A DNA stretch of 64,000 nt from Candidatus Heimdallarchaeum aukensis (GTDB lineage: Archaea > Asgardarchaeota > Heimdallarchaeia > Heimdallarchaeales > Heimdallarchaeaceae), in contig CP084166.1 in assembly GCA_021513695.1 (NCBI GenBank), positions 2,304,001-2,368,000 on the forward strand, written 5' to 3'. Below the pieces are notes generated by a model, which saw nothing but the letters and a program-made list of their open reading frames with translations, searched no databases and had not been told where the DNA came from. This document shows, in pieces, positions 10,978 to 32,962 of this stretch. The position numbers were made by a program, and so were the translations under genes. The first letter of the stretch is position 1. Every line of letters begins with the position of its first letter.

Positions 10978-12132
10978 ATGGTCGTTATGAGTGGATATAG
11001 CCCTACTTGGACTTCAAAAGGCTCTGACAAATTAAGGATCCTTCAAGTCACAAAGATACTAATGAATATAATAGATAGATTGATCAATTCGATTGACGTA
11101 ACTGATGAAAAAACAAGAAATATGGTTGAAGGAATAATAGCGAACACAATTTATAATTATTTTACACCAAACAAAGATTTAGCGATCGAAAAACAGTATG
11201 AATATCTACTAGAATTCTTAGGTTGGAAATTAATTTCTATCGAAAAAAAAGATGATGATTCACTCTCATTAAGTTTAGGTGCAAATCGTTTTATTGATGA
11301 AGAAACAGATAATTTAGCATATAACGCAATTGTTTTAGGCATTGCAAAATCTATTGGATATTTCATTTTCAATAAAGATGTTAAAGTAGAATTGATGGTA
11401 AGTCAGTTTGATTCGACTCAAATAACTGCTCTAATTGAGCGAACTGATAAAGAAATAGCTGTTGAAACTCAAGAAAAGTTAGGTATTCAAATCTCAAAAG
11501 AAGAAGGAGAATTAGGAATCGAACAGAAACAAGCTCCAGCTACCAAAAAAACTCCTGCAATTGAAGTTAAGCCTGAATTAGAATTAGATGTTAAATCTAT
11601 ATTTTCTCCTATTCTTCAGAATTATCCACCCACATCAATTTTGCCTGTATTTCATAAAGTTTTATCTGAAATTGTTACAAGCTTCTTTTCAGAGATTGAA
11701 GACAGTCAAGTAATTAATGCAAAGGCATCGTATTCCGAAATAAACACCGTTTTCTTAATAGAATTTATACTTAGAACCTTACCAACTATTGGAAAAGATG
11801 TGAGTGAGATTGCTACTCTCGCAGGGCAATATCTAATTAAAGCTATACTTACAAAAACACCTGATGATATCATAAAATATTTACCAAAAGAACTTCTTTC
11901 TGAAATCTCTAGACGTGTATCTTATGTTGAATTTGGTGCGCGAGATTATTGTTCTTATGCTCCAGGAGAACGATGTGTTGAAGGGAAAAGAGATTTATGC
12001 GACTTTGTTCTATTTCTTTGGCAAGGAATGTTAGATTCTCTCATTCCTGAAAAAAAATTCAAACTTGGAGAACGCATTCCGGCAACAAGAAGAGGAAAAT
12101 TCTGTTTGGTGGAATTTATAAAACAACAGTAG
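10978..12132 (+). CDS. V4R-domain protein (Bet3/TRAPP-like fold at the C-terminus)
   Basis: The C-terminal approximately 60 aa (CSYAPGERCVEGKRDLCDFVLFLWQGMLDSL...GERIPATRRGKFCLVEF) match the V4R pattern C-x-G-x-C...C-F..G...G....E...G..C-x-F-E-I. Confidence 0.45.
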   Translation: MVVMSGYSPTWTSKGSDKLRILQVTKILMNIIDRLINSIDVTDEKTRNMVEGIIANTIYNYFTPNKDLAIEKQYEYLLEFLGWKLISIEKKDDDSLSLSLGANRFIDEETDNLAYNAIVLGIAKSIGYFIFNKDVKVELMVSQFDSTQITALIERTDKEIAVETQEKLGIQISKEEGELGIEQKQAPATKKTPAIEVKPELELDVKSIFSPILQNYPPTSILPVFHKVLSEIVTSFFSEIEDSQVINAKASYSEINTVFLIEFILRTLPTIGKDVSEIATLAGQYLIKAILTKTPDDIIKYLPKELLSEISRRVSYVEFGARDYCSYAPGERCVEGKRDLCDFVLFLWQGMLDSLIPEKKFKLGERIPATRRGKFCLVEFIKQQ

Positions 12133-12142
12133 GTGTGAAAAA

Positions 12143-12604
12143 ATGGGTAGAAAAACAATAAAAAAAACATATAAGGATACATATGCAAGAGGACAAGTTG
12201 ATAAAAGTGAATTTCAAGGTAGATATTTTGTTAAAATAGAGCTTGTATCTCTGAAGGTACTGGAAGATAAAGATTTACTTGGAAATGAAAGTGAATTTTA
12301 TTTTAAAGTGGGAAGAATGTTACACAAGCATCGAATTCCTCAGAAAGGTACTATTAATTTAGAGAAAAATGAGGTTTTTCAGCCAACAGATGGGTTGACT
12401 TTATATACACAATTTATTCATAAACCTGAAAGGGGAACAATTGTGGTTCCTTTTCGTCTACGCGAAAGAGATCCATTGAAGGTGGATGACCACATTATTA
12501 AAACTAAGTTATCTATTCCTCTAGGATCTTCTGATTATATAGTTCTGGTAGAAAAATCTGTAAAAGTAAAACTAAAAATTTCAGCTTTGGAAACTCGATA
12601 CTAA
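12143..12604 (+). CDS. hypothetical protein
   Basis: 153-aa ORF translationally close to the upstream gene. No recognisable family. Confidence 0.3.
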   Translation: MGRKTIKKTYKDTYARGQVDKSEFQGRYFVKIELVSLKVLEDKDLLGNESEFYFKVGRMLHKHRIPQKGTINLEKNEVFQPTDGLTLYTQFIHKPERGTIVVPFRLRERDPLKVDDHIIKTKLSIPLGSSDYIVLVEKSVKVKLKISALETRY

Positions 12605-13881: not shown

Positions 13882-14805
13882 TTAAAAAGCTAGTTCTAAC
13901 TCATCTACAGCTTTTATTTCATTTTGTTTAATGATGTGCTTTTCCCATGTTTCTGTGTCGATAGCCAACTTTAGAACTTCCTCGAATTCTATTCTTTTGT
14001 TATAGTCTTGAAATATCTCAATAGCTTTGTTTTCATTTTCTTTAATCCACTCGTTAGAAAAATTAGATAGAAATTCAGTAAATATCTGGTAAGCTTTTAT
14101 TTTTTCTTTATTTGTTGTTAAAACGATTGTAAACGCTTTTTCTATTTTTCTAATGAGGACTATGATGTGCTCTGATTCTATTTCAGTTAAATCTCCTAGA
14201 CCATATTGCTGACTCATGTTCAGTATTGCAGAAATAAAAGCGACTAATAAAACAGCATCATAAGGTAAAGATTGGGTAATTAGCAGATACAAAGGTTGTC
14301 CATCTTCATTTGCAATCAATATGTCTAAATCCTTTAGAACCAAGCCAAACGATGTAAATATTTTTTCGTTACCAACTTTTATTTTTTCAATATTTGTTCT
14401 TTTGTTTACAACTAAATTTAGTGATCTCGCAAAATTACTCACTTGCTTTCTCTCATATTCTATAGTCTTTTTATCTTCCATTATGTCATTTATAGAACTA
14501 CTTTTGACCCATGCAAATTGTTGACGAAAGATTTTTACTACTTTTTTGACTACTGTTGAATAATAATCCTTTTTCTTGACGATAACTAAAAAATAATCAT
14601 TTACTGCTTCATAAATAACTTCATTTTCTCCAAAAATGACTTTTTTTGGTATTTTTTCTCCTAATTCTGTAGTAAGTGTTGTCACAGCACTTATGAAACT
14701 TATAAGGGACGCTTTGATTTCCCTGTTAGACCAGGTTCCATGATAGATTCTGTAAAACCTACATGAACCGTTTCTTTTTAGTATCAAAATGGCCTTGATT
14801 AACAC
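13882..14805 (-). CDS. hypothetical protein with two tandem roadblock/LC7-like domains
   Basis: There are two approximately 110-aa units. Each shows the roadblock pattern: a beta-strand rich in I/L/V (IKAILILKRNGSCRF / FGLVLKDLDILIANEDGQPLY), a helix (ISAVTTLTTELG / FISAILNMSQQYGLG) and a hydrophobic strand (DYFLVIVKKK / HIIVLIRKIEKAFTIVLTT). Confidence 0.4.
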   Translation of the reverse strand: MLIKAILILKRNGSCRFYRIYHGTWSNREIKASLISFISAVTTLTTELGEKIPKKVIFGENEVIYEAVNDYFLVIVKKKDYYSTVVKKVVKIFRQQFAWVKSSSINDIMEDKKTIEYERKQVSNFARSLNLVVNKRTNIEKIKVGNEKIFTSFGLVLKDLDILIANEDGQPLYLLITQSLPYDAVLLVAFISAILNMSQQYGLGDLTEIESEHIIVLIRKIEKAFTIVLTTNKEKIKAYQIFTEFLSNFSNEWIKENENKAIEIFQDYNKRIEFEEVLKLAIDTETWEKHIIKQNEIKAVDELELAF

Positions 14806-23121: not shown

Positions 23122-23174
23122 AAGTATCAATTTTTCCAAAACATTTAATTTTTCTATAGTAAATTTCTTTTAGA

Positions 23175-24227
23175 ATGTCTTCGAGTAAATCATCTAGTAA
23201 AGCGAAAAGGATAAATTTTTCCACTCTTTTTAAAGGAATAATTAAAGCTGGTTATTGTGCTTCTTGTGGAGCTTGTGTAAGTGTCTGTCCTGTTAATAGT
23301 ATTGAAATGCAAAATGATCTTCCAAAACTTGTTTCTACATGCATTTCTTGTGGAGCTTGTGTAGATGCTTGTTATCGTTTCCAAAAACGAGAGAAACAAG
23401 AACAAGCAGCAATGGATCCGAATGAAATTTTAGAAATATATACTGCTAAAGCTAAAGATGAACGTATTTATACTCAAGCACAGAATGGGGGTGTTGTTAC
23501 AACTCTTCTAGTTCATGCATTTGAGGAAGGGCTAATTGATGGGGCTTTAGTTACGGATAAGTACTCTAATCTTTTTGAACCTAAACCTATCCTAGTAAAT
23601 ACCTCAGAAGGTGTTATTCATGGGGCTGGATCAAAATATGTTATTAGTAATAGCTTAACAAAATTAGATGCTGTTCGTACTAGTCATAAAAAGAAAGCAG
23701 CAATTGTTGGTGTTCCTTGTCATATTGAATCTCTTACACGAATCATGGAATTTGGATATCTGGGACTTGATCATAGGGTTGCTTTGAAAATAGGTCTATT
23801 CTGTATGCACTCTTATGATAAAAATCTGCTCAAACAATTTGTTGCTGATAAATTTAACATTACTCCTGAACAAATAATAAAGATGGATATTGATAAAGGT
23901 AAGTTCATTTTTGTTACTGAAACAGAGAAATACAAAGTAAAGTTATCAGATATAGATTCCGCTTTCTACAATGGATGCCACTTTTGTTCAGATTTTACTG
24001 CAGACTATTCAGATATTGCTGTAGGTAATATTGGTGTAGACACAAAGAGCAATGTTGTTTTAGTTCGCACTCAGAAAGGCAAAGAATTGTTTGAATCTGC
24101 AATCGAAAAGGGACTTCTTGAAGTAACAAAAATTGATTCTTCAGAATGGGAGACAAAATTTGGGCTTGTCTTCAAACTTGAAAAAAGAAAGAAAAAAGAG
24201 GCTAAAGCCCTTCCCGCTCTAGACTAA
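23175..24227 (+). CDS. FrhB/FpoF-family protein (coenzyme F420 hydrogenase/dehydrogenase beta-subunit-like) with an N-terminal 2x[4Fe-4S] ferredoxin domain
   Basis: Two ferredoxin CxxCxxC...CP motifs (CASCGACVSVCPV; CISCGACVDAC) are followed by FrhB N- and C-domain-like regions (GGVVTTLL; GVPCHIES; CMHSYD). It is immediately upstream of cofE. Confidence 0.6.
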   Translation: MSSSKSSSKAKRINFSTLFKGIIKAGYCASCGACVSVCPVNSIEMQNDLPKLVSTCISCGACVDACYRFQKREKQEQAAMDPNEILEIYTAKAKDERIYTQAQNGGVVTTLLVHAFEEGLIDGALVTDKYSNLFEPKPILVNTSEGVIHGAGSKYVISNSLTKLDAVRTSHKKKAAIVGVPCHIESLTRIMEFGYLGLDHRVALKIGLFCMHSYDKNLLKQFVADKFNITPEQIIKMDIDKGKFIFVTETEKYKVKLSDIDSAFYNGCHFCSDFTADYSDIAVGNIGVDTKSNVVLVRTQKGKELFESAIEKGLLEVTKIDSSEWETKFGLVFKLEKRKKKEAKALPALD

Positions 24228-24235
24228 CCATTGAT

Positions 24236-25000
24236 TTGGTGATCTCTTCATTGAAAAAAATTGAACTTTTTTCCATTCCTTTTCCTATTGTTAAAAAAGG
24301 AGATAATATCGCTGAACTGATTCTAAAAGAATTAAGTGAAAACAATATAGAAATTCAAGATGGAGACATTTTTGTTATTGCTCACACTATTATTTCTCGC
24401 GCAGATGGAAATGAATACTATCTACCAACAATTTCTCCTTCTTTTCTTGCTGAAATAATTTCTCGTAAAACAGGAAAAGACCCTTCTTTAGTTCAATTAA
24501 TTCTAAATGAGTCGTCTTCTCTAGAGAAAGTTCAGAATAACATTATTATTAGTAAACATCGTCTAGGGTGGATATCTGCTAATGCCGCAGTTGATCAGTC
24601 CAACTCTCTTCCTAACCATGCTGTTACGTTACCTACTGATCCTGAAAAAACTGCTAAAAAAATTGGCTCTTATTTACAATCCAAATTAAAGAAAAAGATT
24701 TCAATATTGATTTCAGATACTCATGGTCGTGCTCTTAGGAGAGGAGCAATTAACATAGCAATTGGTTCTTATAATTTTTCAGTAATTGATGATGCAAGAG
24801 GTCGCAAAGATATTTTTGGCAATGAACTAAAATCCACTCTTGTGGCATTAGCTGATGAAGTTTGTTCTGCTGCAGAGTTATTAATGGGACAAGCTGACGA
24901 AATGTCTCCGATTGTTATTATAAGAGGATTTACTCAACGTTCACCTGTTTCTTCAATTTATGAATTGCAATATGAAGATGATAAACGACTTTTTAAATGA
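24236..25000 (+). CDS. cofE: coenzyme F420-0:L-glutamate ligase CofE
   Basis: About 250 aa. The motif GWISANAAVDQSN matches the CofE metal/GTP-binding GxxxxNAGIDxSN signature. There is also an N-terminal GD segment (VKKGDNIAELI). Confidence 0.75.
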   Translation: MVISSLKKIELFSIPFPIVKKGDNIAELILKELSENNIEIQDGDIFVIAHTIISRADGNEYYLPTISPSFLAEIISRKTGKDPSLVQLILNESSSLEKVQNNIIISKHRLGWISANAAVDQSNSLPNHAVTLPTDPEKTAKKIGSYLQSKLKKKISILISDTHGRALRRGAINIAIGSYNFSVIDDARGRKDIFGNELKSTLVALADEVCSAAELLMGQADEMSPIVIIRGFTQRSPVSSIYELQYEDDKRLFK

Positions 25001-25063
25001 AAAAAGAGTAAGTTTAAATAATAACCAAATTAATTCAATCAACAAAAGCAATTCGCTTGTAAG

Positions 25064-25795
25064 GTGTATTATGTGTTTAAACGTTCAAAACGCTCAAAGC
25101 TTGAAGAAGCTAATATACTCTTAGGAGAAGCAAAGGTTCTAGGTCAGCAAAGGAAATATCAAGAAGCCACTGAAACAATTGAAAAAGCAATAGCACTTTT
25201 TACACAGGAAAATGATAGACAAAAACTTGATCTGTCTAAAGCTCTATTTTATGAATTCAAAGCTGAACAATCTATAAAGTCTAACAGAGCTTTAGAAGCT
25301 TCTAACTATCTCGGGAGAGCCGGAGGATTTTACATGCGTTTGCATATGGTTAACGATTTAAACCGGGTTTACAAGAAACAAGCGGACATTTTACTTATTC
25401 TAGCTAGACAAACTATGAAAGAAAAACATTTTATTGAAGCAGCGTCTTATTTTGAGCAAGCCGCTATGGCTTATCAAAAATTAAAAAATAAAGAAATGGA
25501 ACTTGATTGTAAAGCTAAATCTTATGTTTCTCGTGCAGCTGCAGAAAAAACTATATCTGGAAGGAAGGTTTATCTTAGAAAAGCAGTGGAAATAATGCAA
25601 GAAACAGGAACTGATAATCCAATAATAAAGGGCCATCTAGCTTATTATAATGGTTTATTTATTAAGGAAGAAAAGAAAGAGGAAGCTCTTCGCTATTTTA
25701 GTGAAGCTTTACAGAACTATCAAAAAGCTGGAATGTCAAAAAGGGTAGAAGAAATAAAAAAGATGATTAATGACCTAGTTTCAAGCCAGATCTAG
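25064..25795 (+). CDS. hypothetical alpha-helical (TPR-like repeat) protein
   Basis: Repeated approximately 34-aa helical units with A/Y/L spacing (EATETIEKAIALF; EAASYFEQAAMAYQKL; EEALRYFSEALQNYQKA). Confidence 0.3.
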   Translation: MYYVFKRSKRSKLEEANILLGEAKVLGQQRKYQEATETIEKAIALFTQENDRQKLDLSKALFYEFKAEQSIKSNRALEASNYLGRAGGFYMRLHMVNDLNRVYKKQADILLILARQTMKEKHFIEAASYFEQAAMAYQKLKNKEMELDCKAKSYVSRAAAEKTISGRKVYLRKAVEIMQETGTDNPIIKGHLAYYNGLFIKEEKKEEALRYFSEALQNYQKAGMSKRVEEIKKMINDLVSSQI

Positions 25796-25847
25796 TTTCA
25801 AAATAGTAGAATTGTTCTGACTTACTTTATTAGAGATGAATAAAATA

Positions 25848-26441
25848 CTATCTAATGTATATCTCTCTAAATTTCAAAACCTTTTCTTCACTTTGGATAG
25901 CTAATCTTGCAGCATGAGAAAAAAGTTTTTCAACATTTTCAGATGATAATGCAGATGTTTCTATATAATCAAAATTATTTTCTTTTGCATATTCTTCTGC
26001 TTTTTCTCTGTCTACAGCTCTTGCATTTTTTAGATCACTCTTATTTCCACATAAAATAATTGGAATTTCTGAACATTTTTTCTTTATTTCACTAACCCAA
26101 AAGGATACATCATCAAATGTTGACGTTTTAGTAATATCATAGACTACGATAGCAACTTTAGCTCCTAGAAAATATTTTTGTCTAACAAATCCAAAAATTT
26201 CTTGAGCTCCTGTATCCCATAAACTAATTCTAACATTAACATCATCGGTGAGTATATTTTTAGACAAATTTTCATTTAATTCGTCCTTTGTTAAGGAAAG
26301 ACTTTTCGTTAACCAACTCACACCCATTGTTGGGATATAAGAATATGAGAAAGTGTTCATAGCATATCTTCTTGCCAATGATGTTTTTCCTACAAAAGCT
26401 GAACCAATTGTTATAATTTTATACAAATGTCGTTCTATCAT
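25848..26441 (-). CDS. Ras/Rab-like small GTPase
   Basis: All five G-motifs are present: G1 GSAFVGKTS, switch-I Thr (YIPTMG), G3 WDTGAQE, G4 GNKSD, G5 ETSAL. The size is about 195 aa from the internal Met (MIERHLYKIITIG). The ORF track adds 21 extra N-terminal residues (start 26504) that would overlap the upstream gene. Confidence 0.75.
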   Translation of the reverse strand: MIERHLYKIITIGSAFVGKTSLARRYAMNTFSYSYIPTMGVSWLTKSLSLTKDELNENLSKNILTDDVNVRISLWDTGAQEIFGFVRQKYFLGAKVAIVVYDITKTSTFDDVSFWVSEIKKKCSEIPIILCGNKSDLKNARAVDREKAEEYAKENNFDYIETSALSSENVEKLFSHAARLAIQSEEKVLKFREIYIR

Positions 26442-26443
26442 TT

Positions 26444-27292
26444 TTATCTCCAAAATATTTCTATTAGTTTTCTTTCTATGTTGATACTGCTTAAACGCCT
26501 CCAATCATCGAGAATCAAAGGCTTTGTATTCGTATTGATTAATTCTCTAAACTGTTCTGGTTCAAAATACTTACTAGTGATATCAACAAATTCTGAAATG
26601 AAATTAAGGAATGTCTCCTTTATTTGGCTATAATCTTCAATTTCTGTTATTTCTGTTGAGTTTACTTCATCTCTTATAAAGAACCCTTCTTTGTCAAAGA
26701 AAAATAACTCGTCAATTTTTTTGTAATCATTTATTAATTTATTAACATCATTTCTTAGTAACTGATTAATTTTTTTCCTTTTCGATTGATCTTCCACAAC
26801 TTTTTGTATTCCTGAACATACTGAATTTATTATATTCTCAAATATTTCTAATAAATTTCTGAACTCAATATCTTTGATGTGATTAGATATAATAGCGTTC
26901 ACTTTGAAAACTTCGGAAATCACCATAGATGGCGATAAGGGTTTTTTTACTTGTTTAATTTCATCAAGGAAATTTTTAGCAGTTTCTTTATCATAGATGT
27001 CAAAAGAGTATAGAAAGAGATTCATTAAAAAGAATAATTGAGAATACGCCATTCCTTCTTTTTGCTCTTGGGAGATTAGTACAAATATGAAATCATACTT
27101 CTTTTCAACTAAAACAATTGTTTTCTTAAAAATTATTTCTCTTAATGGTCCTAATTCTCTTTGTTCTCCCATCTTTATGAATTTTAATAGTTCCGCAAAT
27201 TGGTCAGGTTTAAGAATTAAATTTTCACTATTAGGCGTGTCTGTAAAGATAGTATCGTAGTTATTTTTGTTGAGTATGTAAAAATTAACCAA
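26444..27292 (-). CDS. hypothetical protein with an N-terminal roadblock/longin-like domain (candidate GTPase partner)
   Basis: The N-terminal approximately 110 aa show a beta-beta-alpha-beta-beta pattern with hydrophobic strands (FYILNKNNYDTIF; TIVLVEKKYDFIFVLIS; MAYSQLFFLMNLF), reminiscent of roadblock/longin folds. The stop lies 2 nt before the GTPase start. This is a fold-level guess only. Confidence 0.3.
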   Translation of the reverse strand: MVNFYILNKNNYDTIFTDTPNSENLILKPDQFAELLKFIKMGEQRELGPLREIIFKKTIVLVEKKYDFIFVLISQEQKEGMAYSQLFFLMNLFLYSFDIYDKETAKNFLDEIKQVKKPLSPSMVISEVFKVNAIISNHIKDIEFRNLLEIFENIINSVCSGIQKVVEDQSKRKKINQLLRNDVNKLINDYKKIDELFFFDKEGFFIRDEVNSTEITEIEDYSQIKETFLNFISEFVDITSKYFEPEQFRELINTNTKPLILDDWRRLSSINIERKLIEIFWR

Positions 27293-27419
27293 TTAGTACA
27301 CCTTTCTATAATTACTTTTAAATAAATTTAAACTTATTCCTTCTTTAGATTCTGCGTTAACTTTGCCAGTTTCTATTTTTCTTCTATAAATTTTAAAAAG
27401 TATAAAAAAAGATAGAAAC

Positions 27420-29612
<2,193 letters not shown>

Positions 29613-29780
29613 TTATTTCCTCTGATGAAATTCATTTATTATTCCTTGATTCAAAACCTTAATTGACCTTTATTAAGGTTATTTTTTGACAGCATTTTAT
29701 TAACAAATGGGAAATTAGTATTTATATTATATTTTATAAAGAACAAAGAAAAAAGAAACAAAGAAAAAGAAAATGTACTT

Positions 29781-31499
29781 TTAGCAACCCGGAGTGAAGT
29801 AAGGCTTAAGTTCTCCAATATGAGAATCTTCTTCGAGAGTTGCTATCTGATAAATTTTATACCCTCCAGTTAGATTTCTTGGATCAAAACCATGTTGCTT
29901 TAGAATTCGGTATGCGAGATAAGAAGTGAATCCAGTCACACAATGTAGATATACTGGCTTATTTTTTGGAATCTCATCTAGCCTTTCTCTTAATTGACCA
30001 ATAGGTATGTTTATCGCACCTGGAATACAACCTTCAGCATGTAATTCTGGTCCTCTTACGTCAATAATTGTCGCCCCTTCTTCTTTTAATTTCTGTGCTT
30101 CATTCCAATGCCATATCTTCACTTCTCCCCTCATTACGTTAGAAGCAACAAAACCAGCCATATTTACACAATCTCTGGCACAACCAAATTGTGGAGCATA
30201 GCACAATTCAAGATTTTCTAAATCATATACTGTCCCCTTAAAGTTTATAACTGTTGCAATGACATCTATCCTTTTTTCTGTTCCTGGCCCACCTACTGCT
30301 TGTGCTCCTAATATTCTGCCATTTTTAGAGTCAAAAATCAGTTTCATTGATATTTCTTGGGCATCAGGGTAGTAACTTGCATGATTTTGGGGATGAACAT
30401 AGATTTTCTCATAGTTAGTAATTCCTAATGATTTGAGTTGTTTCTCGTTTAATCCAGTTTGAGCAACAGTTTTGTCAAAGACTTTAAGAACAGCCGTACC
30501 TATTGAGCCTTTGTAAGTTGTATCTCTTCCAGCAAGATTGTCAGCAGCTATTCTCCCTTCTCTGTTAGCTGGACCAGCAAGAGGAACAACAGTCGGCTTT
30601 TCAGTAATGAAATTTTTAATCTGAACAGCATCACCTACAGCATATATATCAGGGTCAGAGGTTTGCATGTGTTCGTCAACTATTATATATCCTCGTTCAG
30701 TTAGTTCGAGACCACAATCTTTAGCTAAATGTGTGTCTGGTCTAATCCCTATACTCAAAATGACAAGATCTGTTCCAATTTTCCTTCCGCTTTTAGTAAT
30801 AACTTTGTACTTTCCTTCTCCATCTGTAGACTTCTCAATGCCTACAACCCCATCTCCTAAAATAAGTTTGACCCTATTGAGTACAAGTTCATTATGGATA
30901 AATTGTGCCATCTCTCTGTCTAATGTAGGTAAAACTTGGTCTAAAAGTTCAATTACTTTTACACGAATACCTCTTCGACTAAGATTTTCGACCATTTCTA
31001 ATCCTATATACCCTCCTCCTATTACTGTTGCTGTAACAGGGTTGTTCTTCTCAATAAATTCATATATTTTTTCTGTATCTGGAATATTACGGAGAGAAAA
31101 AATAGGTATATCATCCATTCCTCTGAAAGGAGGACGAATTGGCTCTGCACCAGGTGCTAAAACAAGCTTGTCATAAGAAAGTTCATACTCTTTTCCCACT
31201 TCTCTGTCAATCACTTTAACTATTTTCCTTTCTCGATCGATTGAAATAGCCTCATTCAAAACTCTGACATCAATATTGAAAAACTGTTTAAATTTTTCAG
31301 GTGTCATTAAAACTAGTTTTTCGCGGTCTTGTATCACTTTTCCAATATAATAAGGAAGACCACAGTTTGCAAAAGAAACATATGGTCCTCGTTCTAGTAT
31401 TATTATTTCCGCAAATTCATCTAATCGCCGATATCTAGCTGCTGTGCTTGCGCCACCAGCAACACCACCTATTATTATTATTCTCTTTTTCAATTTCAT
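29781..31499 (-). CDS. CoA-disulfide reductase / NADH oxidase family flavoprotein with a C-terminal rhodanese domain
   Basis: FAD Rossmann (IIIIGGVAGGASTA), redox-active single Cys motif (SFANCGLPYY), second NAD(P) Rossmann (ATVIGGGYIGLE) and a C-terminal rhodanese with active-site Cys (YLHCVTGFTS). Confidence 0.75.
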   Translation of the reverse strand: MKLKKRIIIIGGVAGGASTAARYRRLDEFAEIIILERGPYVSFANCGLPYYIGKVIQDREKLVLMTPEKFKQFFNIDVRVLNEAISIDRERKIVKVIDREVGKEYELSYDKLVLAPGAEPIRPPFRGMDDIPIFSLRNIPDTEKIYEFIEKNNPVTATVIGGGYIGLEMVENLSRRGIRVKVIELLDQVLPTLDREMAQFIHNELVLNRVKLILGDGVVGIEKSTDGEGKYKVITKSGRKIGTDLVILSIGIRPDTHLAKDCGLELTERGYIIVDEHMQTSDPDIYAVGDAVQIKNFITEKPTVVPLAGPANREGRIAADNLAGRDTTYKGSIGTAVLKVFDKTVAQTGLNEKQLKSLGITNYEKIYVHPQNHASYYPDAQEISMKLIFDSKNGRILGAQAVGGPGTEKRIDVIATVINFKGTVYDLENLELCYAPQFGCARDCVNMAGFVASNVMRGEVKIWHWNEAQKLKEEGATIIDVRGPELHAEGCIPGAINIPIGQLRERLDEIPKNKPVYLHCVTGFTSYLAYRILKQHGFDPRNLTGGYKIYQIATLEEDSHIGELKPYFTPGC

Positions 31500-31664
31500 C
31501 CCTTAAAAGTTATTTAGTAGAGACTCCTAAATAGAAATATAAAATTAAAGGTATAACTATATTATATCTAATACTAAAAAATATCCAGCAAACTAATGTT
31601 TTTTACATTTTTAGTTAATAGAATTTTGGAAAAATATTAACATATAAAAAAAGAGAAAGTGCAT

Positions 31665-32831
31665 TCACTCTATTTCTTCTAATTCTTCTAACAAATAGCG
31701 AGTACTAGTTTGTTTCATTCGTGAATCTTGTTCTTTTTCTCTTTCACTAATAATATCTCTTTCTATTCGGTCTAAGGCAATAGCAAACGCTCCAAATAAT
31801 CCATAACCCTCTGAGCGAGAGACATAAGTTTTTCCTTTATTTGTTGTTATTCTTAATCTAATCTGATACAAACTGTATCCTCTAAATTTCTTCTTTGGAA
31901 TAGATTTAATATGGATATAGAAATGTCCTGCATTCCCAATCATCAAAGAATATTTATCAATGAACTCTGAAGATAAATCAAAAAGTTGCTTTAAATCTTC
32001 GTCATCGATTTCTCCCATTACATTGATAAAATAACCCTCTTGTTTAGGAGGAACACTAACAGTTTCTAATAAGTCATGAGTAGTTAGAATACCTACAACA
32101 TGGTTTGAATCATCAACAACAACTAATGCTTTGTGATCAGACTCGTGAAGTTTTTCTATAGCTTGTTCGACACTGTCATCTAGTTTGCAAGTTACAACAT
32201 CTGTACTCATTAGATTAATTATTCTTGTGGAGTAAGGATCAATCTGTGTTTCAGATCTATCTCCAAATGTTTGTCCAGGCAAATCCGATAGAAGAATTGG
32301 TTTAAGGTCATGGGGGCTAACAATACCTATAAGTTCATTTTTTTCATTTACAACTGGACATCGAGAAATGTTATTATTTCTACATATAGAAAGTAGTTGT
32401 GCCGCAGTTGTTTCAGTATTACTAGTTATTGGGTTTGGTGTCATTAATTCCTTTACTTTTTTTCCTTCATAGAGTTCAAGTTCACTCTTTATAAGATCAA
32501 TATCTCGAATAACACCAATTATTTCTCCATTTTCTTCGACAGGAATAGAACGAATTTTTGATTGTATGAGTATTTTTGCTATCTCGTTTATTGGAAGATT
32601 TTTCTTTATTGTTGGGACTTTTTTAATAAATGTAGATACTTTAGAATCTAAATAAAGTCGAGATTGTCTAGCTAGAAATCTCTTTGTCAAATAACCTAAA
32701 AACACATCTTTTTCATCAAAAACTAATATCTCTCTTGTATTTTTATCAAAAAGTTCTAATGCTTTTGCTAGCTTTTCATTTTCTACAACTGACACGTAAT
32801 CTGAAATTAAAGATTCAATTTTTTCGCTCAT
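31665..32831 (-). CDS. CBS-domain protein (four CBS motifs) with an uncharacterised C-terminal region
   Basis: There are four repeats of the CBS pattern, each with a hydrophobic core plus G-[IV]-[IV]-[ST]-x-x-D[LI] (GVIRDIDLI; GIVSPHDLK; GILTTHDLLE). Confidence 0.6.
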   Translation of the reverse strand: MSEKIESLISDYVSVVENEKLAKALELFDKNTREILVFDEKDVFLGYLTKRFLARQSRLYLDSKVSTFIKKVPTIKKNLPINEIAKILIQSKIRSIPVEENGEIIGVIRDIDLIKSELELYEGKKVKELMTPNPITSNTETTAAQLLSICRNNNISRCPVVNEKNELIGIVSPHDLKPILLSDLPGQTFGDRSETQIDPYSTRIINLMSTDVVTCKLDDSVEQAIEKLHESDHKALVVVDDSNHVVGILTTHDLLETVSVPPKQEGYFINVMGEIDDEDLKQLFDLSSEFIDKYSLMIGNAGHFYIHIKSIPKKKFRGYSLYQIRLRITTNKGKTYVSRSEGYGLFGAFAIALDRIERDIISEREKEQDSRMKQTSTRYLLEELEEIE

Positions 32832-32962
32832 GTTTTAACATAGAATTCTATTCCCTTAAAATTTATGGTTAAGCAACACATTCTTGGGAAAGGTTTTTTA
32901 TTGCTTATTTCTCTATATTTAAATAGATTTAAATAAATTAACTATTAATAGTAGATTAAAAG

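Follow-up and report, generated by a model that had tools for sequence, protein, structure and literature searches.

Two adjacent genes, here called X and G, were analysed in a 64-kb stretch of the genome (3.08 Mb) of the Asgard archaeon Ca. Heimdallarchaeum aukensis, which we refer to as the window and which has a GC content of about 32%. The initial annotation had described a Ras/Rab-like GTPase gene preceded, at a distance of 2 nt, by a gene for a 282-aa protein. The arrangement is as described, with both reading frames on the minus strand, and the two nucleotides between the stop codon of X and the ATG of G are 26443-26442. The GTPase, for which a length of 195 aa had been given, is 197 aa long. 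The identical 197-aa protein of Ca. Heimdallarchaeum aukensis is entered in NCBI as "GTP-binding protein"; X is 100% identical to an NCBI protein, and its public record (K9W45_10475) reads "hypothetical protein". Both are real genes, with orthologs in 24 GTDB species representatives, and their dN/dS values, 0.03-0.06 for G and 0.07-0.17 for X, are far below 1 and correspond to purifying selection. The positions of the genes, of their motifs and domains and of the putative expression signals are collected in Table 1.

Table 1. Coordinates of the genes X, G and CDC48 and of their features within the window.
Feature	Positions	Strand	Description
CDC48-family AAA+ ATPase	27420..29609	minus	729 aa; TIGR01243 1090 bits; Pfam CDC48_N, CDC48_2, 2 x AAA
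TATA-box-like AT-rich element TTTAAATTTATTTAAAAG	27315..27332	minus	about 25-40 nt upstream of X start; putative archaeal promoter
Shine-Dalgarno-like GGTG of X	27299-27302	minus	precedes the TTG start
Gene X	27292..26444	minus	282 aa; TTG start 27292; stop TAA 26446-26444
X longin domain, residues 1-114	26951..27292	minus	predicted, AlphaFold model
X longin elements			predicted; residues β1 2-8, β2 14-17, α1 29-44, β3 52-55, β4 58-65, β5 68-75, α2 79-96, α3 102-114
X helical domain, residues 131-282	26447..26902	minus	predicted; one β-hairpin 197-206; without recognisable family
Shine-Dalgarno-like GGAG of G	26448..26451	minus	inside the last two X codons (TGG AGA TAA), 6 nt before the ATG of G
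Gene G	25848..26441	minus	197 aa; ATG 26441; stop TAG 25850-25848; Asgard "RasL"-type Rab/Ras-like small GTPase
G1/P-loop GSAFVGKTS, residues 13-21	26379..26405	minus	identical in 27/29 loci
Interswitch (β2-β3 hairpin) insert LTKDELNENLSKNIL, residues 50-64	26250..26294	minus	about 15 aa
G3/switch II WDTGAQE, residues 75-81	26199..26219	minus	catalytic Gln80 kept; DxxG Gly replaced by Ala79
G4 NKSD, residues 133-136	26034..26045	minus	
G5 ETSAL, residues 161-165	25947..25961	minus	

Identity and conserved features of the GTPase G

The G protein matches the Pfam Ras family PF00071 with an E value of 1.1e-45 (155.6 bits for a cutoff of 21.6), and the motifs quoted in the initial annotation, GSAFVGKTS, the switch-I threonine (T38), WDTGAQE, NKSD and ETSAL, are all present. 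G is a Ras-superfamily small GTPase whose G3 motif deviates from DxxG: WDTGAQE had been called very close to WDTAGQE, and the motif is there, but the swap puts an alanine at the canonical DxxG glycine. The top PDB match is the Thorarchaeota Rab 7EZB (2.4e-33), and the other 59 of the best 60 PDB matches are eukaryotic Rab11, Rab35, Rab5, Rab6, Rab30 and Ypt proteins; MglA is not among these 60. The bit scores of G were 110 with Rab11B and 71 with a manually entered H-Ras sequence, and BLASTP with a likewise manually entered sequence of M. xanthus MglA gave 18.9 bits with an E value of 0.05. On this negligible similarity, the reading of G as an MglA-family protein was rejected. In agreement with the earlier assignment, G falls among the Ras-like proteins of Asgard archaea and the Rab/Ras proteins of eukaryotes and not among the MglA/EngB types of bacteria.

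Orthologs of G, 55-92% identical and present in 24 species, form a sharply separated group of roughly 30 protein clusters with identities of 55-71%, after which the score falls from 228 to 128 bits. The mean pairwise identity is 71% and the median identity to the window protein 57%. The interswitch insert, with the consensus LTxExLNENLTK, is of constant length and highly conserved, N56, N58, L59 and K61 being invariant; it occurs only in this ortholog group and corresponds to a gap in the alignment with Rab11B, the Thorarchaeota Rab and H-Ras. The spacing from G1 to G3 is also constant (53 aa, 29/29 loci). Across the 29 loci the G3 motif reads WDTGGQE in 24 and WDTGAQE in 4, the latter only in Heimdallarchaeum-proximal loci, i.e. 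the window, L007 and L001/L002 (including H. endolithica and one further lineage). Because the DxxG glycine is an alanine there, the switch mechanism may be altered in the clade of the window.

The G orthologs end in a conserved LKFRKxYIL stretch, and in 29/29 of them the last 8 residues hold no cysteine, so that a Rab prenylation motif (CC, CXC or CAAX-like) is absent. G was compared by eye with Rab11B using the RabF1-F5 signature motifs reportedly defined by Pereira-Leal and Seabra. The agreement was partial to good for MGVSW/IGVEF, RISLW/KAQIW, YFLGA/YYRGA and VVYDIT/LVYDIA, and poor in the RabF3 region (IFGFVR vs RYRAIT).

Sampled eukaryotic and Asgard Ras-like sequences were combined with the G orthologs in a crude NJ tree (100 bootstraps). 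The G orthologs were monophyletic in 100/100 replicates, an exclusive grouping with the sampled eukaryotic sequences was obtained in 0/100, and the orthologs were positioned among other Asgard Ras-like sequences, far from MglA. This placement agrees with Vargová et al., in whose study no Asgard sequence was specifically sister to Rabs. Therefore, the shared features of G, together with the crude NJ tree and the work of Vargová et al., place it, as a Rab-like protein, within the Asgard "RasL" radiation and do not establish it as a Rab. The reading as a bona fide Rab was rejected, as C-terminal cysteines are missing and G is not sister to Rabs in the crude tree. The Ras/Rab-like label of the initial annotation stands on the PF00071 and Rab PDB matches, but does not extend to a true Rab.

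With 7EZB, the Thorarchaeota Rab described by Tran et al., G has in common a Rab-like core, a short C-terminus and the lack of C-terminal prenylation cysteines. Unlike this protein and the Asgard "RasL" proteins, G has the 15-aa interswitch insert, a GSAF P-loop, GG or GA instead of AG in G3, and a fixed operon partner. No GTPase paralog of G is encoded elsewhere within the window.

Predicted fold and conservation of the partner X

When 1.84 billion cluster representatives were scanned exhaustively with HMMER, only 8 proved to belong to the X family, which is confined to Heimdallarchaeaceae. X has no significant match in Pfam, in NCBIfam, where no model covers it, or among PDB sequences, for which single-sequence and profile searches returned nothing significant (CSN7b 0.019, interferon 0.025). 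The hhalign comparison of the X profile with a longin-like protein of 307 aa encoded in the window was insignificant, as were those with the 260-aa and 303-aa ORFs found beside other Asgard GTPases.

An alignment of 5 near-identical X sequences led to a poor AlphaFold (AF2) model, with a pLDDT of 52, and the usable model, with a mean pLDDT of 79.7, was obtained with an alignment of 11 sequences. In this model residues 1-114 have the topology β-β-α-β-β-β-α-α, with two helices at the C-terminal end and none at the N-terminal end, by which we recognise a longin domain. They are followed by a disordered linker (residues 116-128) and by a compact helical bundle with one β-hairpin and no extended motif (block pLDDT mostly 80-93, four blocks lower). 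This helical domain has no match in Pfam, NCBIfam or PDB sequences. The top Foldseek matches in the PDB are all longins: AP2 σ, Mon1-Ccz1, ζ-COP, Fuzzy-Inturned, Sec22b and BLOC-3. Sub-threshold matches to Pfam Fuz_longin_1 were found in 7/12 divergent members of the X family, with a best E value of 2.4e-4; the X of the window scores 14.8 bits for a cutoff of 26.1, and none of the 12 members reaches a Pfam longin gathering score. The AF2 topology, together with the Foldseek matches and these sub-threshold profile matches, identifies the N-terminal domain of X, as modelled, as a longin and not a roadblock domain. The initial annotation had proposed a roadblock/longin fold for these approximately 110 aa, of which the longin part is retained and the roadblock part is not. 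The predicted fold and the sub-threshold matches further suggest that this domain may most resemble the first longin domain of the eukaryotic tri-longin Rab GEFs.

Other identities were considered for X. A roadblock/LC7 domain (MglB-type, PF03259) was rejected because it needs α-β-β-α-β-β-β with an N-terminal helix. A DENN domain was rejected as no uDENN, cDENN or dDENN profile matched, and a longin SNARE (Ykt6, Sec22, VAMP7) as there was no Synaptobrevin/SNARE Pfam match. The protein ends in ...IFWR, with no C-terminal cysteine and no hydrophobic stretch obvious by eye. In the longin GAPs FLCN, NPRL2 and SMCR8, the β1-β2 region carries a conserved arginine finger and a GP motif (PMC12290439). 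Among 25 distinct X sequences, residues 1-25 contain no invariant or near-invariant arginine and no GP motif, F4 and Y5 being the only invariant positions; with this signature absent, an FLCN-type longin GAP was rejected.

In the same 25 sequences, conserved polar residues are found at the start of α2 (S84, Q85) and as a stripe on one face of helix 131-165 (H138, R145, N146, E149, E152, N153 and N156), and the helical domain holds a conserved E263-W264-x-R266 motif. Within the longin domain conservation peaks in α2 and not in α1, the helix expected to face the GTPase from the MglA-MglB and Mon1-Ccz1 complexes. X evolves by far faster than G and CDC48, and is still under purifying selection: its mean pairwise identity is 52% (88% for CDC48), its median identity to the window protein 28% (85% for CDC48), and it is down to 25-33% identity in most lineages.

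Genomic linkage of X, G and CDC48

A scan with the GTPase alignment, covering a single genome for each GTDB species, yielded 24 loci with a G ortholog, nearly all in MAGs labelled Heimdallarchaeota, and 37 further loci with more distant Asgard GTPases. X lies directly upstream of G in 22/22 ortholog species loci having upstream DNA, and beside the more distant GTPases in 0/37. The operonic pairing claimed for the two genes was borne out by a gap of 2-5 nt between the stop of X and the start of G in 29/29 loci. The Shine-Dalgarno-like element of G is embedded in X: in nearly all of the 29 loci X ends with TGG-AGR-TAA, which provides GGAG(G), and L018 and L025 read TGGCGGTGA in its place. Because the last codons of X form the Shine-Dalgarno of G, the invariance of W281 and R282 may partly be a constraint at the nucleotide level.

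Upstream of X, nearly all orthologous loci carry a TTTTTAAG / TTTAAAT element between -40 and -52, and the TATA-like element of the window is, from its sequence and position, the putative promoter of the X-G operon. Wherever a locus extends far enough, CDC48 precedes X, at a distance of 108-211 nt. As a TATA-like element precedes X and this spacer separates it from CDC48, X-G appears to be a bicistronic unit of its own.

The apparent ancestral gene order in the family is Fer4_5 - CDC48 - X - G - CBS - FrhB - CofE - TPR. Heimdallarchaeum shows an inversion of the FrhB-CofE-TPR block and a relocated CBS, and other lineages have different genes directly after G or directly before CDC48. In no case is the CDC48-X-G trio broken up, though both of its flanks are rearranged in several lineages. 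This conserved adjacency is suggestive of a possible functional tie of CDC48 to X-G.

Proposed role of X and comparison with known systems

We propose that X-G is a bicistronic operon that has a promoter of its own and is coupled in translation, encoding a switch GTPase (G) and its dedicated longin partner (X). X, probably a dimeric longin platform, would bind the switch/interswitch surface of G and set its nucleotide state, most likely in the role of a guanine-nucleotide exchange factor like the longin-based Rab GEFs (Mon1-Ccz1 LD1, TRAPP core). The helical domain of X or the insert of G could form a lineage-specific interface. A direct cognate partnership of X with G, in whatever form, is very probable; to a GEF-type role of X, with a putative interaction and a putative exchange activity, we give a probability of about 0.45.

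A regulator pair is supported by the nature of G, an intact Ras-superfamily GTPase closest to Rabs, by the complete linkage and its absence at the 37 distant loci, by the short gap with its embedded Shine-Dalgarno, and by the conserved TATA-like element before X. It is also supported by dN/dS values below 1 for both genes and by the calculated pI values, acidic for X (5.1) and basic for G (8.4). In bacterial mglBA operons the regulator comes first and the GTPase second, and the same order in X-G counts in the same direction. Among regulators, a GEF is favoured because the closest structural and sequence affinities of X are with GEF longins, because the longin-GAP signature is absent, and because Rab-type clients are the norm for such longin platforms.

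Against the GEF reading, longin and roadblock platforms serve as GEFs, as GAPs (MglB, FLCN) or as passive scaffolds and effectors (Ragulator, SRX-SRβ), so that the fold alone is not decisive. Moreover, the Pfam longin matches of X all fall below the gathering threshold, its best conserved helix is α2 and not the GTPase-facing α1, and the DxxG glycine of G is an alanine in the clade of the window. X might act instead as an MglB-like GAP, a longin platform that clamps the switch regions of G and positions the GTPase's own Gln80 without supplying an arginine finger. We consider this unlikely, since the topology of X is that of a longin and not a roadblock, its best structural and sequence matches are GEF-type longins, the similarity of G to MglA (manually entered sequence) is negligible and the FLCN-type GAP signature is absent. 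The translational coupling, on the other hand, suggests stoichiometric co-expression, which is no less in keeping with a stable complex than with a catalytic regulator. X could also be a non-catalytic partner of G, i.e. an effector, scaffold or localisation subunit comparable to those of SRX-SRβ and Ragulator-Rag, whose helical domain would link G to another machine, possibly CDC48. This is conceivable but doubtful: an interaction of X or G with CDC48 is without support, a spacer with a promoter-like element lies between them, and the wider synteny is also largely conserved, so that the adjacency to CDC48 may be simply inherited.

With the X-G interaction putative and all loci from one archaeal family, the linkage could also be inherited, and the two genes be transcribed together as neighbours that do not interact directly in function. 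We regard this as very improbable. The co-occurrence is complete, the gap is constantly short and the ribosome-binding site of G is embedded in X; the linkage is kept although X has diverged so far in most lineages and although both flanks of the CDC48-X-G trio are rearranged, and longin folds are known to serve as platforms for GTPase binding.

The GEF reading can be extended to CDC48. X would then be a single-longin, pre-eukaryotic relative of Mon1/Fuzzy/HPS1-type Rab GEFs that activates its dedicated G and, with CDC48 (an AAA+ relative of NSF/p97) and the SNAP-like TPR protein encoded nearby in most Heimdallarchaeaceae, forms a primordial Rab-GEF/AAA+ module for membrane or protein remodelling. 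We hold this extended scheme to be quite unlikely as a whole; if true, such a module would sit in the family of archaea nearest the stem of the eukaryotes.

The MglB-MglA system (a roadblock GAP and a Ras-like GTPase; mglBA of Myxococcus, Thermus and many prokaryotes) resembles X-G in that regulator and GTPase genes are adjacent, on the same strand and conserved in their linkage. X differs from MglB by a longin instead of a roadblock domain and by the extra 150-aa helical domain, and G differs from MglA, besides the low score given above, in being Rab/Ras-like, with the canonical Gln, NKSD and ETSAL and a lineage-specific interswitch insert. The tri-longin Rab GEFs Mon1-Ccz1, Fuzzy-Inturned (CPLANE) and HPS1-HPS4 (BLOC-3) have three longins, whereas X has one longin and a helical domain. 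In addition, the X-G operon is without a gene for a heterodimer partner, the sequence matches of X are all sub-threshold, and its family is found in Heimdallarchaeaceae only.

An Asgard operon of a LAMTOR1-like roadblock protein, a Rab-like GTPase and a DENN protein, described as conserved in most Asgard archaea, has been proposed as a GEF module (Liu et al. 2021, 10.1101/2020.10.19.343400). It shares with X-G the character of a conserved Asgard neighbourhood that joins a Rab-like GTPase to a roadblock/longin-superfamily protein. In contrast, the X-G locus has neither a DENN nor a LAMTOR1-like gene, its neighbours being CDC48 and a TPR protein, and it is limited to one family. The principle of a small GTPase encoded together with a roadblock/longin-superfamily regulator is therefore known already, from mglBA and from the operon of Liu et al. 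Structures have also been characterised for Asgard longins, roadblocks and Rab-like GTPases. For the cultured MK-D1, Tran et al. (2024) state that GTPase genes as a rule do not share an operon with such partners, so that pairs are difficult to predict. In the literature searched, there appears to be no description of the X family, with its longin and unique helical domain, of its strict one-to-one operon with an insert-bearing GTPase lineage, or of the invariant CDC48 neighbour.

Ras-like GTPases number in the dozens in Asgard archaea, as do longin/roadblock proteins, with regulators and GTPases largely unmatched. X-G, a strictly conserved, translationally coupled one-to-one pair of Heimdallarchaeaceae with an unannotated partner family, is unsurprising for an Asgard genome, yet as a cognate pair it is clean and open to testing. 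The interswitch insert of G and the C-terminal domain of X are candidate lineage-specific determinants of specificity. With these two small soluble proteins, it becomes answerable whether longin-based GEF/GAP control of Rab-like switches predated eukaryotes.

Two other proteins of the window had been assigned trafficking-like folds. The V4R domain given for 10978-12132 found no support in Pfam (including searches with halves of the protein, E<=10), in NCBIfam, in PDB sequences or in the source annotation. For the 307-aa protein at 13882-14805, called a tandem-roadblock protein, roadblock is without support, but the tandem is plausible. Its N-terminal half matches Clat_adaptor_s (σ-adaptin type) at a borderline 22.6 bits for a cutoff of 22.5, a weak match to Intu_longin_1 is present, and its two halves are weakly similar to each other (E 0.014). 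From these matches the protein appears longin-like, possibly with two such domains in tandem.

Gene order around the CDC48–longin–GTPase genes

Gene order across window positions 23163-32834 was compared with the loci L001-L030, which carry orthologs of the Rab/Ras-like GTPase. In most Heimdallarchaeaceae, the CDC48 gene, the longin-domain gene and the GTPase gene lie in one same-strand block, CDC48-longin-GTPase-CBS-FrhB-CofE-TPR, which includes the gene of the TPR protein. In the Heimdallarchaeum lineage (the window and L007), the FrhB-CofE-TPR block is inverted in comparison with the other Heimdallarchaeaceae, and the CBS gene is relocated upstream, behind the Pyr_redox/rhodanese gene. The CDC48-longin-GTPase unit is unbroken despite both rearrangements. 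Among the orthologs of the TPR protein, 4 of the 9 tested matched the Pfam SNAP (soluble NSF attachment protein) profile, one of them above the gathering cutoff (30.2 vs 25 bits), and weak MIT-domain matches were also seen for this family.

Coordinates of the features discussed
Feature	Position	Strand	Remarks
384-aa protein	window 10978-12132	+	annotated hypothetical; conserved in Heimdallarchaeaceae
153-aa protein	window 12143-12604	+	annotated hypothetical; conserved in Heimdallarchaeaceae
K9W45_10405, 307 aa	window 13882-14805	-	annotated 'hypothetical protein'
TPR protein, 243 aa	window 25064-25795	+	convergent with the GTPase gene; conserved family
TPR-protein orthologs	L005:8936-9658, L006:8877-9608, L030:8348-9112, L009:3803-4558
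GTPase G3 motif DTGAQE	window 26199-26219	-	also L007, L001, L002
Pyr_redox/rhodanese gene, 572 aa	window 29781-31499
CBS gene	window 31665-32834	-	relocated upstream
Extra GTPase-like ORFs	L010:5155-5454, L027:7312-7820		107, 213 bits vs ortholog profile
Convergent ORFs, 260-303 aa	L031:5905-6687, L035:5044-5955	-	adjoin Ras-like GTPase genes

GTPase variants and atypical loci

The G3 form DTGAQE, in which the DxxG glycine is replaced by alanine, is confined to Heimdallarchaeum-proximal lineages. At the remaining 24 loci the motif reads DTGGQE, with a GG that is Arf/Gα/Rag-like, whereas Rab and Ras have AG. In two MAGs (L010 and L027), extra GTPase-like ORFs sit downstream of the longin-GTPase pair, which suggests local duplication or fragments. 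The contig JBHLQZ010000084.1 (L009), labelled 'Candidatus Thorarchaeota archaeon', carries a GTPase ortholog (58% identity) followed by a CBS-FrhB-CofE-TPR block of Heimdallarchaeaceae type, and is probably mis-binned or mislabelled.

Longin-like and hypothetical proteins

The N-terminal half of K9W45_10405 resembles a longin of the σ-adaptin type (Clat_adaptor_s, 22.6 bits for a cutoff of 22.5) and also weakly matches Intu_longin_1 (E 0.0078). The two halves are weakly alike (BLASTP E 0.014), and a tandem longin-like architecture is plausible from these comparisons; of the tandem roadblock proposed in the initial annotation, the tandem arrangement is retained as plausible, with longin profiles matching the N-terminal half. 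Searches of Pfam, NCBIfam and PDB with the 384-aa and 153-aa proteins returned zero matches. The V4R assignment proposed for the 384-aa protein in the initial annotation is unconfirmed. The C-terminus of the 384-aa protein is Cys-rich (YCSYAPGERCVEGKRDLCDF...KFCLVEF).

At two other Asgard loci, L031 and L035 (Borrarchaeum and a Heimdallarchaeota MAG), Ras-like GTPase genes are single or tandem. The convergent ORFs beside them gave zero Pfam matches; their N-termini appear β-β-α-like, and in hhalign they are only weakly similar to the longin-domain protein of the GTPase operon (E 0.0056 and 0.19).
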